Assembly: GCA_049115835.1 (NCBI GenBank)
Contig: JAGDZN010000011.1
Location: forward strand, 66,541-130,540
Source: Reichenbachiella sp.
Lineage (GTDB): Bacteria > Bacteroidota > Bacteroidia > Cytophagales > Cyclobacteriaceae
Direction of reading: 5' to 3'
DNA: 64,000 nucleotides
Part shown: positions 1,186 to 10,848 of the stretch, in pieces
Position numbering within the stretch: position 1 is the first letter of the stretch
Layout of the letters: each line of letters opens with the position of its first letter
Notes under the pieces: generated by a model
The model's input: only the letters and a program-made list of their open reading frames with translations
Databases searched by the model: none
What the model was told of the DNA's origin: nothing
Translations under genes and position numbers: made by a program

Positions 1186-1223
1186 AAACCCTCGGGATAG
1201 TAGTTTTCCCCCGAGGGTTTTTT
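1186..1223 (+). terminator. Rho-independent terminator
   Basis: aaaccctcggg (1186-1196) pairs with cccgagggttt, followed by further Ts; lies ~180 nt after the gltD stop. Confidence 0.8.
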
Positions 1224-1289: not shown

Positions 1290-1323
1290 TTTGATTCCCC
1301 CCCCCCCCATTTTTTTATAATTG
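1290..1323 (+). promoter_or_regulatory. Putative Bacteroidota sigma70 promoter with a C12 homopolymer in the -33/-7 spacer
   Basis: TTTG at 1290-1293, 12 Cs at 1297-1308, TATAATTG at 1316-1323 (one mismatch to TAnnTTTG), ATG at 1350. Confidence 0.55.
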
Positions 1324-1349: not shown

Positions 1350-3098
1350 ATGACCAGCCTAAGAACATCGATACTTATTGTTATTGCCACACTACTATTT
1401 TCATCATGTGACAAAACGGATGAGGACTTGCTAATTAATAAAGAACCTGATATCACTATTGAATCTATTATCCCCAATGATGACAGTAATTTACTATCAA
1501 TATTAGCTAATTTCGGAAGCGTAGATTCAAACGCAAAAATGTTAGATTCAGGATTCGGCAACATTTCTCTAGACGAAGCTATCAAGGTAACAAACCCTTA
1601 TCGAAATCTCGAAAGATATTCGTTGCTCATCAAGAGCGATAATAATTCATTTGGTTTTGAAAACTTGGTGCTGCGGGAAATCGAAGGAGAAGTTTTGCCT
1701 TACATCATTAAGTTCGATCCAGATCTTCACTGGTTGTATCAAAATGAAGGTGTATTTGACATTACAACACTTACTGGAGAGCTCGCCATTCTAAATTTGG
1801 ATAGAGCCTTGCTTTTTGAAGCAAGTTACATAAATGGGCGTGGCTACAACATTCGTGACTATTTAATGAACAGTTCCAGTGGTCGTATTAATTGTGGAGG
1901 ATCTTCTGGAACTGGTGGAGGAAGCTCAGGTGGCCCATCTGGAGGAGGAGTTGGAAATACAGGAGGGACAGGAGGCTCTGGCAATACGGGCGGATCCACT
2001 GGCAACAATGGATCAACTTCGGGTTCTGGTGGTTCAAGTTGTGTGTGGGGTACTACAGCAACAGGAGGCATTTTCATAGACTGTCGTGAACAAAATATGG
2101 GATTGCATTTCTTTAAAACTCTGTGTGACCCATACGGATATGTAGATTTAAATGATTGTGCGGTGGGAGACTGCCCTATCGATCCAATTGGAATTCTACC
2201 TAGACAGCCAATCAATTTATCTGAGCTAATAAAAGCTACAAGAATAATCACCCTTACTCAATTAATCCAAGATGACCCATTTGCATTAATTGAAAATTGT
2301 GATCAGATAGAGCAGTGGCAAGAACTTGTGCAACATAATGTGCCCGGTACAGTTTTACAAAAGCTTGAATTCTTACAATCAGCCAATAATAGCGTATTTG
2401 GAGGAGATTGGAATGTGCAGAACATTAATGATGCCGAAGGTCCTGTTGTCAATATGGATTATTTCTCCGTACGAGTCACTCAATTGCCAAAAAACCCTGA
2501 TACTGGTCAAAGCTTCGCTCCTGACTCATTTTTTAACCACGTCAGAAAAAACCTTGATGATTTCCTTGAAGGAAATTCTACAGAATTCGGCTCATATAAT
2601 TCTGCTGAAGATGATTTATGGAAATCCAATGACTACCTTGGAGCCATAATGAGATTTGAAATTAAACCTGAGATTCTTGGAGGAACAATTCCTGCTTCAC
2701 AAGATGGTACTGTAATTTGCTCAGACAAGAACAATAAGAGCTGGAAATTCACAACACTAGAATCCCCAGATGACTGGAACCATCCGGTGAGTGGGCATAG
2801 AGAGTTTGGATTGGTTACGAATGCTGATGGTTCCTATACTTTTTATACCAGAGGTGTAGATCGTGTAGCTGAAGCATTTGATCAGTTTGCAGGAGATTTA
2901 CCTTTTGGTCAAACTGCTTTTGAAGGAGCTGATAAGCTTTGGACCACATTTCAGAATAATCTAGAATCTTATATCAATGCCCCAGGTAGAAATGGATTCG
3001 CTCAAATCGAAACTCCTAAAATTGATAGAACAGATTGGGATAAAATCGATTCTATCTTGAAAGGAGAAACTCCTGTTGCTGAAATAGGATGTGACTAA
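1350..3098 (+). CDS. Lipoprotein with Gly/Ser-rich linker and uncharacterised C-terminal domain (DUF1990-like motif)
   Basis: Lipobox LFSS-C; 48-aa G/S/T/N linker (nt 1896-2039); C-terminal HPVSGHREF...DGSYTFYTRGVDR motif. Confidence 0.75.
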   Translation: MTSLRTSILIVIATLLFSSCDKTDEDLLINKEPDITIESIIPNDDSNLLSILANFGSVDSNAKMLDSGFGNISLDEAIKVTNPYRNLERYSLLIKSDNNSFGFENLVLREIEGEVLPYIIKFDPDLHWLYQNEGVFDITTLTGELAILNLDRALLFEASYINGRGYNIRDYLMNSSSGRINCGGSSGTGGGSSGGPSGGGVGNTGGTGGSGNTGGSTGNNGSTSGSGGSSCVWGTTATGGIFIDCREQNMGLHFFKTLCDPYGYVDLNDCAVGDCPIDPIGILPRQPINLSELIKATRIITLTQLIQDDPFALIENCDQIEQWQELVQHNVPGTVLQKLEFLQSANNSVFGGDWNVQNINDAEGPVVNMDYFSVRVTQLPKNPDTGQSFAPDSFFNHVRKNLDDFLEGNSTEFGSYNSAEDDLWKSNDYLGAIMRFEIKPEILGGTIPASQDGTVICSDKNNKSWKFTTLESPDDWNHPVSGHREFGLVTNADGSYTFYTRGVDRVAEAFDQFAGDLPFGQTAFEGADKLWTTFQNNLESYINAPGRNGFAQIETPKIDRTDWDKIDSILKGETPVAEIGCD

Positions 3099-3722: not shown

Positions 3723-4760
3723 ATGGCTACACTTTTAAAAGTTACCACTCTTAGTCTCATTGCCTTAATCGGTGGATTTCATTTCACGTTATATGCTGAC
3801 ATCATCATAGAATATCAGGTCACCCCTCATCAGGATCAGCCTTTGGTAGATAAAAGCCTCATTCTGCCCGAAAGAATCATTATGAGTTTCAATGAGGACA
3901 ATGTCAGAATTCAAAAGGTGGGTCATCAACCTTACAGTTCCTTTGACCTCTATACCTTTGGCCACCGCTCTTTTTATAACTGTGTAGAATTCATGGGACA
4001 AAAGAAAGCCTTTAGGCATGATCCCGAATATTACAATATCACTTCAGTGAGTGATAGCACTTTCAAAGTGCTGAGTATACCCTGCAGTAAAGCTATTGGC
4101 TATATGGATGAGAAAAAAATCGAGATTTATTATACGGATATTTATGGTGCGAATTTTCATCCAAATGCAGACATTGATGGCATTGCACTTATGTATACCG
4201 TGGAGGATAAGGTTTTTGGCAAAATCACCTATCTCGCAACAAAAATCATGGTCGATTCGATCCCGAAAGAAATGTTTAGTAAAAATGAGTACGTCATTAC
4301 TAAAACAACTGAATTGGACGTTGGCACGGGCAAACTAAATAAAAAGTTTCCCGCTGTATCGCTGAAGAATCTTGAGGGTGAAAAGTTTAAATATGTTCCC
4401 GACACCACACAATTTACTGTAATTAACTTTTGGTTTGGAGGATGCAGACCCTGCATCATGGAAATACCCTACCTTAACACTTTGGTTAAACAACACAATA
4501 AACAGCCAGTTAATTTTATGGCAATTTCTTTGGACAAGCCAGACCAACTATCAAAGTTCCTGAACAATCATTCATTTTTATATGAACATTTCTCGGAAGG
4601 AAAGAATGCAGCCAAAAAACTTGGCATTCAGGCGTATCCTGCACATTTCATTATTGATCAGCATGGTAAGATTATTTACGAGAGTAGTGGTTATAACGCT
4701 CTATCAGTTTATGACCTTGCTTCAAAACTTGATAGTCTTTTGCTAACTTCAAATGACTGA
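3723..4760 (+). CDS. TlpA/ResA-family thioredoxin-like protein with additional N-terminal domain
   Basis: C-terminal VINFWFGGCRPCIMEIP (CxxC) and AYPAHFIID; N-terminal signal-like segment. Confidence 0.8.
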   Translation: MATLLKVTTLSLIALIGGFHFTLYADIIIEYQVTPHQDQPLVDKSLILPERIIMSFNEDNVRIQKVGHQPYSSFDLYTFGHRSFYNCVEFMGQKKAFRHDPEYYNITSVSDSTFKVLSIPCSKAIGYMDEKKIEIYYTDIYGANFHPNADIDGIALMYTVEDKVFGKITYLATKIMVDSIPKEMFSKNEYVITKTTELDVGTGKLNKKFPAVSLKNLEGEKFKYVPDTTQFTVINFWFGGCRPCIMEIPYLNTLVKQHNKQPVNFMAISLDKPDQLSKFLNNHSFLYEHFSEGKNAAKKLGIQAYPAHFIIDQHGKIIYESSGYNALSVYDLASKLDSLLLTSND

Positions 4761-4792: not shown

Positions 4793-6088
4793 ATGATTAA
4801 AACTGCCTTGTTTTATCCGTTGATTTGGGCACTATATCTCATTTCATCTGAGCTTTATGCTCAGAACACGTACACAGTCATTATCGATCGAGATTATCAG
4901 TTTCAGCACGATGCAGATAGTCTTTGGATTATGAGTTTTTTACCCAAAAGCATCACTAATCGTCAACGAGTGATCAATTACCGTTTTTCACCTGTGATTC
5001 CACCTATAGAAGATATTGAAAATAGTAGGTGCTTTCGTCTAGTTTTATTTGATGATGAGATCAAAAAGTCATACAGGTTTCATGCCGAATTTGACATTGA
5101 AATATTCGATTATGATTTGGCAGAAGCCCTCTACATCAAAGACGGATTAGACGATACATTGAACTTAAGCCAATACCTAGAGCCAGAAAGCTTTATTAAT
5201 AGTGATAGGAAAAAGTTTAAAAAGTTGGTGAGCACTTTTGATGATTCAGAAATCATCGCTGTGCGACAAATAATGGAGTACGTTCGAAAAAAAATCAATT
5301 ACAAAATTCAGCAATACGGCGACTTGGGTGCCAACAAATCTCTCGCCCTTCGCGAGGGAGATTGCTCGGAGTATTCTGACCTCATGGTCTCAATATGTCG
5401 AGCCAAAGGCATTCCTTCCAGAACAGCTATTGGCAAAGTGGCTCAAACGTCTATTAACCCAAATCATGCATGGGTTGAAGCTTACCTGAAAGGAATAGGT
5501 TGGGTGCCCTTTGACCCAACTGCTGTTGAATCCAGTGGGCTTGAAAGAATTGAAGAACTAACTGCACCTTACATATATTACTCTTTTGACAGAATTGATA
5601 AATACCTCGGATCTTTCACTGCAAATTCTTGGTATTACACCAATGGTACTACTGATGCGAGATAATTTGTTAAAGTAATACAGGATAAGATCCATATTTT
5701 TCAGGAAGCAGCAGAATTTTATAATTCTCATCAATATGATTCTGCCATTTATTTGCTCGACGAACTCATCACGTTTGATCTAGCCAATACCAAGTATATA
5801 ACTTTTAAAGGCATGGCTTTTGCCCGACAAGGAGAATTTGAAAGGGCACATAATTATTTTCAATTGGCCATTGCACAGGCCAAACATGGTATGCAAAAAA
5901 GAGACGTCTACTACTCATATGCTAACTACCATGCTCTAAACTGAAACAAAGAATATTGTCTTTCCTTTCTCAGGAAGTCCTTTGAATTAGGTTTTAGAAA
6001 CTTCGAGCATGTTAAAAGTGATGAAGATTTAGTGAGTGTTAGGGATTCAAAAGAATTTGAAGCTTTGTTGACAGAATTCGAAAATTAA
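4793..6088 (+). pseudogene. Transglutaminase-like protein with C-terminal TPR region, interrupted by in-frame TAA (5663-5665) and TGA (5942-5944)
   Basis: Catalytic triad motifs GDCSEYS, HAWVE, FDPT in 4793-5665; the same frame continues through TPR-like 5666-5941 and a TPR-end-type tail NKEYCLSFLRKSFELGFRNFEHVKSDEDLVSVRDSKEFEALL to TAA at 6086-6088. Confidence 0.75.
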
Positions 6089-7990: not shown

Positions 7991-8034
7991 CGCCAATTTG
8001 AACTCATCGAAAATTAAGATATAAACGCCCCCCA

Positions 8035-10848
8035 ATGCCAAAAGATAATAGCATCAAATCTGTACTGATTATAGGAAGTGGACCTATCGTAATTGGACAA
8101 GCATGTGAATTTGATTATGCCGGTTCTCAAGCTGCACGTTCTTTGCGTGAAGAAGGAATAGAGGTGACTTTAATAAACTCAAATCCTGCGACCATTATGA
8201 CGGATGAAGTGACAGCAGATAATATTTATCTAAAGCCACTTACCAAACAATCTATCAGAGAAATTCTCGAAAAGCATGAAATCGATGCGGTTCTTCCTAC
8301 CATGGGAGGACAAACGGCCTTGAACTTGGCGATGGATTGTGATAAAGCTGGGATTTGGAAAAAGCACAATATCAAAGTGATTGGTTCGAATTTCGATGCC
8401 ATAGAAACTACCGAAGATCGTGAGAAATTTCGATTGAAAATGCAAGAGATCGGGGTTGGCGTCTGTAAAGGTCGTACCGCAACTTCATTCCTTGAAGGAA
8501 AAGAAATAGCACAAGAAATTGGGTTTCCATTGATCATCAGGTCTTCATTTACGCTTGGTGGGGCAGGCGGTGGATTTGTGGAAACTCCAGAAGACTTTGA
8601 CAAAGCATTAAATGATGGACTCCATGCTTCGCCAATACATGAAGTACTCATTGAGCAAAGTATTTTGGGTTGGAAAGAATATGAATTGGAAATCATGCGT
8701 GATAGCATTGGCAATTTCATTGTCATATGTTCGATCGAAAATTTCGACCCAATGGGTGTTCACACAGGAGACTCTATCACCGTAGCACCAGCCATGACAC
8801 TTTCTGATACTGTTTATCAGGAAATGAGAAATCAGGCTATTCATATGATTAGTTCAATTGGGGAATTTGCTGGAGGGTGTAACGTGCAGTTCTCTGTTCA
8901 CCCTGAAAATGATGAAATCATTGGTATTGAGATCAACCCGAGAGTATCTCGTTCTTCTGCGCTAGCCTCTAAGGCGACAGGTTATCCAATTGCTAAAATT
9001 GCAGCGAAGTTGGCCGTCGGTTACAACTTGGATGAATTGAATAATCAGATTACCAAAACTACTTCCGCCTTTTTCGAGCCTGCCATAGATTATGTAATTG
9101 TAAAAGTTCCTCGTTGGAATTTTGATAAATTCAAAGGAGCAGATCGTCATTTAGGACTTCAAATGAAGTCAGTTGGAGAAGCCATGGGTATTGGGCGAAA
9201 CTTTCAAGAAGCCTTACAAAAAGCTTGTCAATCTCTCGAGATAAAAAGAAATGGCTTAGGGGCAGATGGTCGTGAACTAAAGAGTCATGACGAATTAGCT
9301 GAAAGCTTAAGACACCCTAGTTGGAATCGTCTTTTCCATATTTATGATTCTTTCAAAATAGGCATCCCATTTAAAACAATTTTGAATCTCACAAAGATCG
9401 ACCCTTGGTTCTTACACCAGATTGAAGACCTAATTGATCTTGAAAAAGAAATTGAAAAATTCAACATCTCTAATCTTTCAAAAGAACTTTTAATAACAGC
9501 AAAGAAAAAAGGATATGCTGACAGGCAGATTGCACACTTAGTCGGTTGCTTAGAAAGTGAGGTCTTCCAAAAAAGACAGGATTTTGATATTAAAAGAGTG
9601 TACAAATTAGTGGACACTTGTGCTGGTGAGTTTGATGCTAAAACGCCTTACTACTACTCTACTTTTGAGGATGAGAATGAATCAACTCCGTCTAATAATA
9701 AAAAAATTATTGTATTGGGTTCAGGACCAAACAGAATTGGCCAGGGAATCGAATTTGATTACTCATGCGTGCATGGCGTTTTAGCTGCCAAAGAATGTGG
9801 CTATGAAACCATTATGATCAATTGTAACCCTGAAACGGTTTCAACTGATTTTGACATTGCTGATAAGCTTTACTTTGAGCCGGTTTTCTGGGAGCACATC
9901 TATGAGATTATCCTGATGGAAAAACCAGAAGGTGTCATCGTACAACTAGGTGGTCAAACGGCATTGAAATTAGCAGAAAAGCTTGAAAAATATGGCATCA
10001 AAATTATTGGCACTAGTTTCAAAGCACTGGACTTGGCTGAGGATAGAGGTTCATTTTCAACATTGTTGAAAGAAAATGACATTCCTTATCCAAAATTTGG
10101 TGTTATAGAAACGGCAGATGAAGCATTGGAATTATCTGCTGAGTTGGGTTACCCACTACTTGTCAGACCTTCTTATGTATTGGGAGGTCAGGGAATGAAA
10201 ATTGTAATCAATGATGAGGAACTAGAGTCTCATGTAGTAGAACTATTCCGAGCGATCCCTGGAAACAGAGTGATGTTAGATCATTTCTTGGATGGCGCAA
10301 TGGAATGTGAAGCGGACGCCATTTGTGACGGTAAAAACGTATATATCATAGGCATCATGCAGCATATAGAACCTGCTGGCATTCATTCAGGAGATTCTTT
10401 TGCCGTGCTACCACCATTCAATCTAGGAGATTTAGTTATTAGAAAAATTGAGGACTATACGAAGAAAATTGCCATCGCATTAGAAACGGTTGGTTTAATC
10501 AATATTCAGTTTGCAGTTAAAAATGATGAGGTATTTATCATAGAAGCAAACCCTAGAGCTTCTCGAACCGTGCCATTCATTTGTAAAGCATATGATGAGC
10601 CTTATGTGAATTATGCGACGAAGGTTATGTTAGGGGAAAAGAAGGTAACTGATTTTAATTTCAACCCTAAAAAAGAGGGTTATGCTATCAAAGAACCAGT
10701 TTTCTCATTCAATAAATTCCCGAATGTAAATAAGGAATTGGGCCCTGAAATGAAATCTACGGGAGAATCTATTTACTTCATTGATGATTTAATGGATGAT
10801 TATTTCATGCAATTGTACAGCGAACGTAACTTATATTTGAGTAGATAA
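8035..10848 (+). CDS. carB: Carbamoyl-phosphate synthase large subunit (short form lacking the C-terminal MGS-like domain)
   Basis: GSGPIVIGQACEFDYAG, two ATP-grasp halves, HTGDS/HSGDS, ends shortly after GPEMKSTGE. Confidence 0.97.
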   Translation: MPKDNSIKSVLIIGSGPIVIGQACEFDYAGSQAARSLREEGIEVTLINSNPATIMTDEVTADNIYLKPLTKQSIREILEKHEIDAVLPTMGGQTALNLAMDCDKAGIWKKHNIKVIGSNFDAIETTEDREKFRLKMQEIGVGVCKGRTATSFLEGKEIAQEIGFPLIIRSSFTLGGAGGGFVETPEDFDKALNDGLHASPIHEVLIEQSILGWKEYELEIMRDSIGNFIVICSIENFDPMGVHTGDSITVAPAMTLSDTVYQEMRNQAIHMISSIGEFAGGCNVQFSVHPENDEIIGIEINPRVSRSSALASKATGYPIAKIAAKLAVGYNLDELNNQITKTTSAFFEPAIDYVIVKVPRWNFDKFKGADRHLGLQMKSVGEAMGIGRNFQEALQKACQSLEIKRNGLGADGRELKSHDELAESLRHPSWNRLFHIYDSFKIGIPFKTILNLTKIDPWFLHQIEDLIDLEKEIEKFNISNLSKELLITAKKKGYADRQIAHLVGCLESEVFQKRQDFDIKRVYKLVDTCAGEFDAKTPYYYSTFEDENESTPSNNKKIIVLGSGPNRIGQGIEFDYSCVHGVLAAKECGYETIMINCNPETVSTDFDIADKLYFEPVFWEHIYEIILMEKPEGVIVQLGGQTALKLAEKLEKYGIKIIGTSFKALDLAEDRGSFSTLLKENDIPYPKFGVIETADEALELSAELGYPLLVRPSYVLGGQGMKIVINDEELESHVVELFRAIPGNRVMLDHFLDGAMECEADAICDGKNVYIIGIMQHIEPAGIHSGDSFAVLPPFNLGDLVIRKIEDYTKKIAIALETVGLINIQFAVKNDEVFIIEANPRASRTVPFICKAYDEPYVNYATKVMLGEKKVTDFNFNPKKEGYAIKEPVFSFNKFPNVNKELGPEMKSTGESIYFIDDLMDDYFMQLYSERNLYLSR

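Follow-up and report, generated by a model that had tools for sequence, protein, structure and literature searches.

Repeat-tract phase variation is textbook material for the host-adapted Neisseria, Haemophilus, Campylobacter, Bordetella and Helicobacter, and invertible promoters dominate the literature on phase variation in the Bacteroidota. In Neisseria meningitidis, slippage in the poly-C tract of the opc promoter and the poly-G spacer tract of the porA promoter reportedly alters promoter geometry and gives high, intermediate or no expression. These tracts, of about 9-14 nt, lie in the core promoter of a surface-protein gene, much as would a run of 12 Cs (C12) in the window, by which we mean the whole 64 kb stretch of DNA analysed here. 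The opc and porA promoters, however, are of the sigma-70 -35/-10 type and belong to a host-adapted proteobacterial pathogen, whereas the candidate elements considered here are of the Bacteroidota TTG (-33) and TAnnTTTG (-7) type, in an environmental, Cytophagales-like organism. Tracts of variable length just upstream of the -10 region also modulate surface-protein transcription at Bordetella pertussis fim2/fim3 (poly-C), Helicobacter pylori sabA (poly-T) and Treponema pallidum tpr (poly-G) (PMC1891110, PMC2715451, PMC7864442). The homopolymer proposed here to lie in the promoter of a surface-protein gene would resemble these, but the Bordetella tract sets the distance to the site of an activator (BvgA) rather than to a -35 element, and no activator is known for the window.

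Phase variation by intragenic homopolymers is established for the contingency loci of Neisseria, Haemophilus and Campylobacter (PMC5084427, PMC2831843). The tract in the window differs from these in lying in a putative promoter rather than in a coding sequence, whereas loci L034, L052, L055 and L057, which are Chitinophagales-like relatives, resemble them in having natural in-frame and out-of-frame alleles. The Bacteroides invertons, invertible promoters that confer phase variation (Jiang 2019, cited in PMC7366714), come from the same phylum and produce the same stochastic on/off pattern of surface structures as is proposed here, but they use a site-specific recombinase and inverted repeats, neither of which would be involved in the switch in the window. 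A literature search found no repeat-tract switching for Flavobacterium, Cytophaga or other Bacteroidota, or for -33/-7 promoters, which is no proof of its absence.

We propose that C12 is prone to slippage and forms part of the core promoter from which two genes, for a surface lipoprotein and a small membrane partner, are transcribed as an operon. Replication slippage would cause the tract to gain or lose Cs, each change in length would shift both the distance and the helical phase between the TTG, as a -33 element, and the TAnnTTTG-like -7 box, and transcription would go up, down or off in a manner that is heritable yet reversible. C12 is real, and it is probably a phase-variable promoter tract. 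The joint reading, in which the tract slips, its length sets the TTG/-7 distance and hence the strength of the promoter, and C12 (22 nt) probably falls on the weak side, is one that we hold with moderate confidence. The tract, its position and its rarity are direct observations, as are the retention of the layout in a homologue and the natural length polymorphism of the homologous tract. The features of the window are as follows.

1186-1223, forward strand: intrinsic terminator of gltD, an 11-bp stem with a U6 tail (-18.8 kcal/mol, z = -3.1, then TTTTTT)
1290-1293, forward strand: TTTG, candidate -33 element of the Bacteroidota sigma-A type, 3 nt 5' of C12
1297-1308, forward strand: C12, putative slipped-strand (hypermutable) tract, unique in the window; the homologous tract varies (C9/C10/C11)
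1316-1323, forward strand: TATAATTG, candidate -7 box, a 5/6 match to TAnnTTTG, 7 nt 3' of C12
1350-3098, forward strand: gene for a 582-aa lipoprotein with signal peptide MTSLRTSILIVIATLLFSSC and lipobox Cys20, then acidic residues
3103-3507, forward strand: gene for a 134-aa partner, candidate immunity protein, separated by 4 nt from the end of the lipoprotein gene; about four segments look hydrophobic by eye

An earlier note on this DNA had singled out a run of 12 Cs at 1297-1308 as striking in AT-rich intergenic DNA, placed it between TTTG (1290-1293) and TATAATTG (1316-1323) with a spacer of 22 nt, put the ATG 26 nt further on, and seen a lipoprotein gene and a two-gene module downstream. 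The positions and distances are exact when the letters of the window are read directly, the downstream gene does encode a lipoprotein, and the pair of genes is kept across relatives. About 2e-4 runs of 12 C or G would be expected by chance in 64 kb; C12 is the sole G/C run of at least 7 nt that a scan of the window found, the next longest being three runs of 6 nt each, and the G+C content of the window is 37.0%. The tract is far beyond chance. It is separated from TTTG by ATT (1294-1296) and from TATAATTG by ATTTTTT (1309-1315), and it belongs to the uninterrupted homopolymers of at least about 8 nt at which slippage is expected. Homopolymers of this length are unstable and the homologous tract varies, and for these reasons C12 is very likely to be hypermutable in populations of the source organism. 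A pattern search for its exact flanks with a variable gap found no match among metagenome contigs. The genome collection contains no relative above 60% identity in the C-terminal domain, the protein database contains nothing between 42% and 100% identity to the window lipoprotein, and a relative of the same genus was absent from the collections. The second-longest C run in the window, a C6 run at 8028-8033, ends 2 nt ahead of a start codon at 8035 (937-aa ORF).

The upstream gene is gltD, which ends at 1004 (TIGR01317, E = 1.8e-129) and is closed by the terminator, whose hairpin proper spans 1186-1220; the lipoprotein gene therefore needs a promoter of its own within about 1224-1349, some 125 nt that hold C12. 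Between C12 and the ATG, TATAATTG is the only reasonable -7-type box, although matches to TAnnTTTG as good as this one occur at about 1.2% of the intergenic positions of the window, so that TATAATTG alone is weak evidence. From TTTG to the TA of the box the gap is 22 nt, and a further 26 nt (1324-1349) separates the box from the ATG at 1350, which gives a predicted transcription start at about 1328-1331. Active Bacteroides and Flavobacterium promoters reportedly have spacers of 19-21 nt, and 19 bp is said to be optimal for the Flavobacterium johnsoniae ompA promoter. The spacing of 22 nt is outside the 19-21 nt range for -33/-7 elements, and the loss of 1-3 Cs would bring it inside. Given the intergenic composition of the window, a box of at least 5/6 would fall 5-7 nt downstream of any chosen point with a probability of about 0.035 per promoter, and a TTG would fall 3-6 nt upstream of it with a probability of about 0.09 per promoter.

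The spacing element of this scheme is less secure. A survey of 311 TAnnTTTG boxes, drawn from 279 kb of the genomes examined here, showed no preferred distance at which a TTG precedes the box, and perfect -7 boxes number only 6 across 39 upstream regions of the window; the window and the 279 kb data give no organism-specific spacing optimum. The earlier note had taken TTTG and TATAATTG for a putative TTTG/TAnnTTTG promoter, which stands in so far as such motifs are documented in Bacteroidota promoters (PMC2483708, PMC7366714) and the layout recurs in a homologous locus, but the lack of a preferred TTG spacing does not support its -33 part. Furthermore, the -33 motif was not recovered by RNA-seq in F. 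johnsoniae (PMC7366714), and in view of both results the 'spacer' may not be a classical one. We infer that the boxes of the window are a real promoter. A sigma-70 consensus scan was set aside as irrelevant to Bacteroidota. The spacer between gltD and the lipoprotein gene (1005-1349) is unusually long at 345 nt and includes a small, stable hairpin at 1041-1056 (z = -4.5); a search of 950-1400 against Rfam gave nothing near the gathering score.

Scanning all fetched loci of the lipoprotein family for G/C runs led to the promoter of P0006, a homologue of the window lipoprotein with 44-45% identity. At this promoter (p1 of locus L013) the order is cTTG-CATA-C11-TAAGCA-TATATTTG, 46 nt before a GTG start, and the box, 6 nt after the tract, is a perfect TAnnTTTG.

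330-332 of L013: TTG of p1
337-347 of L013: C11 of p1
354-361 of L013: TATATTTG, -7-type box of p1

The P0006 locus is represented in five independent metagenome assemblies (L013, L044, L045, L046 and L049) that are 99.8-100% identical; apart from the tract they differ by 0-5 substitutions in 2.6-4.3 kb. The underlying metagenomes are Ga0316209, ERZ27251196, ERZ27251221, ERZ27251224 and ERZ27251089. L013 and L044 carry C11, L045 and L046 carry C10, and L049 carries C9, giving TTG-to-TA spacers of 21, 20 and 19 nt respectively, an allelic series that equals the range reportedly found for spacers of active Bacteroides and Flavobacterium promoters. L013 and L045 show no substitution over 3136 nt and differ solely in the tract, L045 and L046 are identical, and L049 differs by 3-5 substitutions. 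Since tract length differs where there are no substitutions at all, the tract must mutate much faster than single bases, and the reproduction of the same lengths between assemblies argues against random consensus error. With 22 nt, the C12 allele of the window has a spacer one nucleotide above the longest in this homologous series (19-21 nt), and for that reason it is plausibly low or off rather than at the optimum.

A further promoter of this kind (p2) precedes a second lipoprotein gene at the end of the L013 contig, where TTTG-CATATA-C4TC9-AATTG-TATGTTCG lies 28 nt before the ATG; TATGTTCG is a 5/6 match that lies 5 nt after the tract, and the gap from TTG to the box is 25 nt. In both poly-C promoters of L013 the TTG lies 4-6 nt 5' of the tract. 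Recurrence of the layout of TTG, poly-C and -7 box in the window and in L013 is unlikely to have arisen by chance, given the per-promoter probabilities of about 0.035 for the box and 0.09 for the TTG.

The L013 locus has several other features. The second lipoprotein gene (MNYRNFTSYLSVLILALLFLNGC..., L013 3850-3981) has its own poly-C promoter, and L044 departs from L013 after L013 position 3813, just upstream of that gene, as a structural variant. The second copy of the small membrane-protein gene contains an (AT)n repeat encoding YIYIYI (L013 2920-2945 versus L049 4120-4140) that differs by one AT unit, such that the gene is split into ORFs of 72 aa and 106 aa in L013 and is an intact 135-aa ORF in L049. 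This repeat is a second repeat-tract frame switch in the module formed by the lipoprotein and its partner.

In Chitinophagales-like relatives the poly-C is found within the signal-peptide codons, in the pattern ATG ... TTT A-Cn-TC, with C8 or C9 in codons 5-8 of L034, L052, L055 and L057. L052 has C8, which is in frame and gives MRKFTPPSIFLFLLILFILSFNFSC; it is the only locus at which the tract is in frame, the other Chitinophagales-like loci all being out of frame. In L057, whose genomic context is that of L052, the tract is C9 and out of frame, as it is in L055 and L056 (Ginsengibacter MAG), where C8 would restore a canonical signal peptide. At the P0023 locus two of five assemblies (99.8-100% identity) have C8 and three have C9, both lengths being out of frame. 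Equal tract lengths recur across independent assemblies at several loci (L013 = L044, L045 = L046, L034 = L050, L047 = L048 = L051). Gene callers start the out-of-frame alleles at an internal TTG or ATG, which yields truncated signal peptides and means that such genes are systematically mis-annotated. The coding poly-C appears to be an independent route to the same on/off outcome.

Across the 290.8 kb of non-redundant DNA made up by the window and the loci there are exactly 7 G/C runs of at least 8 nt; every one (7/7) is a sense-strand poly-C situated about -71 to +22 nt from a lipoprotein start codon. Some 30 other loci of the family are without any tract, and a tract is thus not required for regulation of the family. 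In L052 (5001-8009) and L057 (2501-4586) we observed a common context, with TatD and polysaccharide deacetylase genes upstream, and a common 5' end, followed by different C-terminal domains (DUF3289 versus Peptidase_C39_2-like); their partner genes and tracts (C8 versus C9) also differ. This looks like the exchange of a C-terminal cassette at a single locus.

Several other explanations of the tract can be weighed against these data. It could be hypermutable but act at or after the transcription start, with the upstream box AATTTTTG (1286-1293) serving as the -7 element and transcription beginning inside the C run; length would then affect initiation (through reiterative transcription) or the length or structure of the 5' UTR, and not spacing. 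All three poly-C promoters do begin their tracts 4-7 nt after a TTG, where such a start would fall, and the 8-mers that end in this TTG match TAnnTTTG at 5/6 in the window (AATTTTTG), 4/6 in L013 p1 (TTTACTTG) and 5/6 in L013 p2 (TTTATTTG). However, the boxes 3' of the tract are equal or better (5/6, 6/6 and 5/6) and keep a constant 5-7 nt from it, no TTG lies 19-21 nt upstream of 1286, and the spacer model accounts well for the 19-21 nt series of L013 p1, so that we think initiation within the tract improbable. It is similarly improbable that the tract is mutable but neutral, a by-product of slippage whose length has no meaningful effect on expression. The statistical weakness of the -33 element and the many family members without a tract fit such neutrality, but long tracts decay without selection, and this one has persisted between homologues of only some 45% identity, as well as between P0023 and P0027 (59% identity in the N-terminal halves); moreover, all 7 occurrences of poly-C of at least 8 nt in 291 kb are beside lipoprotein starts, each of them in the sense orientation.

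That strict orientation (7/7) would also suit a fixed, strand-specific element, either a site for a regulator that binds C- or G-rich DNA or an i-motif or G-quadruplex, to which changes in length would be incidental, and nothing favours this possibility more directly. Alleles ranging from 9 to 12 Cs speak against a defined site, and in the other branch the tract is part of the signal-peptide codons and evidently acts on the reading frame; we give a fixed element very little credence. Least credible of all is an artefact, in which the run or its exact length would reflect an assembly or sequencing error. Homopolymers of 12 nt are error-prone on several platforms, and in the window the count may be off by one C either way, but the flanks are continuous, ordinary intergenic DNA with a terminator, boxes and a start codon, and equivalent tracts of the same lengths are present in independent assemblies of homologous loci.

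Slippage that alters promoter spacing remains the reading that we prefer, and with it the suggestion of the earlier note that C12 is a phase-variation switch. The variation of the homologous tract (C9/C10/C11) at 0-5 substitutions, the recurrence of the layout and the variability of the coding poly-C all speak strongly for that suggestion, but the absence of a preferred -33 spacing (311 boxes) leaves its spacer component less well founded. Other points count against the proposed switch. The gap of 25 nt in L013 p2 is outside any optimum, and Bacteroidota promoter spacers are normally AT-rich. In addition, co-silencing of an immunity gene with its toxin is hard to rationalize, if the partner is transcribed only from the C12 promoter. 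Control of expression by the length of the tract is what we infer from the combined comparisons.

In the 582-aa lipoprotein the lipobox (...LLFSSC) runs into DKTDED. The N-terminal domain is beta-rich, and a Gly/Ser linker at about residues 183-230, which AlphaFold models as disordered, joins it to a C-terminal domain of some 290 aa. This last is conserved, contains 'HPVSGxRxFG' and ends GC(D/N/K); His478, Tyr496, several Trp and the penultimate Cys are invariant in it. The acidic stretch after the lipobox Cys (C-DKTDED, residues 20-27; window 1350-1430) has similar counterparts in most homologues; we take it to resemble the surface-export signal of Bacteroidota lipoproteins, and by this analogy the lipoprotein may be surface-exposed.

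The window lipoprotein (P0001) has no match in Pfam or NCBIfam, and a profile search of PDB sequences with its C-terminal domain returned only artefacts of the Gly/Ser linker. A Foldseek search with the model of this domain gave weak matches to Bet v 1 / PYL helix-grip proteins (E ~7e-4, target-normalised TM-score 0.5-0.65). We do not call the domain colicin M-like, there being no colicin M in the Foldseek top 50, and DUF3289 (PF11692) gave no match to P0001 even at E = 1; PF11692 matches 2/35 family members, both of which have a C-terminal domain unlike that of the window. The family is rare, with 22 proteins in the first search and the nearest at 42% identity, and the nearest named genomes with relatives are those of Ekhidna, Reichenbachiella, Fulvivirga and Mangrovivirga.

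Like polymorphic toxins, members of the family keep the N-terminal half and swap the C-terminal domain. P0027 and P0023 share 59% identity over their N-terminal 325 aa, which comprise the signal peptide, N-terminal domain and linker, and P0027 then has DUF3289 (PF11692, E = 3e-15) in place of the P0023 end. P0030 and P0038 have a Peptidase_C39_2-like end (a Pfam match), and P0035 and P0039 have yet another. The Fulvivirga protein P0015 aligns with the window protein over residues 3-182 and 231-285, which take in the N-terminal domain (38% identity) and the Cys-rich segment that follows the linker, and then diverges into a domain with an HESLH motif.

The lipoprotein gene and its small partner are kept as a pair in every relative examined. 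The window partner is 28-52% identical to the partners in 7 other loci, and eight Cytophagales-type loci pair the HPVSG domain with a membrane protein of about 134 aa (28-66% identity), whereas the DUF3289, C39-like and HExxH ends are each accompanied by an unrelated partner; the partner thus changes with the C-terminal domain. L052 retains an orphan copy of the partner of the displaced domain (64% identity), and in L013 there are extra partner copies and a 164-nt duplication of the lipoprotein 3' end. Domain swapping, a co-varying partner and orphan copies are signatures of toxin-immunity loci. DUF3289 is an antibacterial, periplasm-acting, colicin M-like domain of T6SS effectors, for which a small membrane immunity protein is encoded downstream (PMC11148199, PMC12135965). 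That the window lipoprotein is itself toxic is an extrapolation from its relatives, because its domain is not DUF3289 and its resemblance to Bet v 1 / helix-grip proteins is only weak.

The module shares with described polymorphic toxin-immunity systems (CDI/Rhs/Maf and the DUF3289 T6SS effectors) an architecture in which a linker joins a conserved N-terminal region to a C-terminal domain that can be exchanged, one version of it being DUF3289, as well as a small downstream gene that co-varies with that domain, orphan partners and duplicated 3' ends. It differs from them in using a lipoprotein as carrier where they use T6SS, T5SS or Rhs proteins, and in that the C-terminal domain of the window is outside any Pfam family. 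In L013 the 164-nt region that covers the 3' end of the lipoprotein gene and the start of the partner is present at 2016-2179 and again at 2572-2735 (87% identity), ahead of the second partner copy, and in L054 (2122-2532) the small partner ends ...ISDLGCK, which is the C-terminal motif of the lipoprotein itself. These features look like the recombination scars typical of toxin-immunity arrays.

A broader proposal is that in environmental Bacteroidota (Cytophagales and Chitinophagales) polymorphic toxins carried on surface lipoproteins are stochastically switched by poly-C tracts, which seem to have arisen independently at two sites, the promoter spacer and the signal-peptide codons. We advance this tentatively, as somewhat more likely to prove wrong than right. 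If true, cells would be hedging their bets in deploying a weapon against other bacteria, and a phylum known so far for invertible promoters would also have a contingency system based on repeat tracts. The mechanism is of a known kind; what would be new is the phylum, the type of promoter and the attachment to a toxin-like family of polymorphic lipoproteins. If the lipoprotein is a toxin, stochastic switching would be tied to interbacterial antagonism in free-living bacteria, which raises the question of how OFF cells keep immunity. The natural series from C9 to C12 also offers a means of quantifying the effect of spacer length on a Bacteroidota promoter.

Beyond the module, the window encodes a 345-aa protein (3723-4760) with a C-terminal AhpC/TSA-redoxin domain (E = 6e-18), and a redoxin protein of 351 aa follows the homologous module in L001 and L003; the redoxin gene may therefore be a conserved third gene of the module. 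It is followed in the window by a gene for a transglutaminase-core protein (4793-5665).
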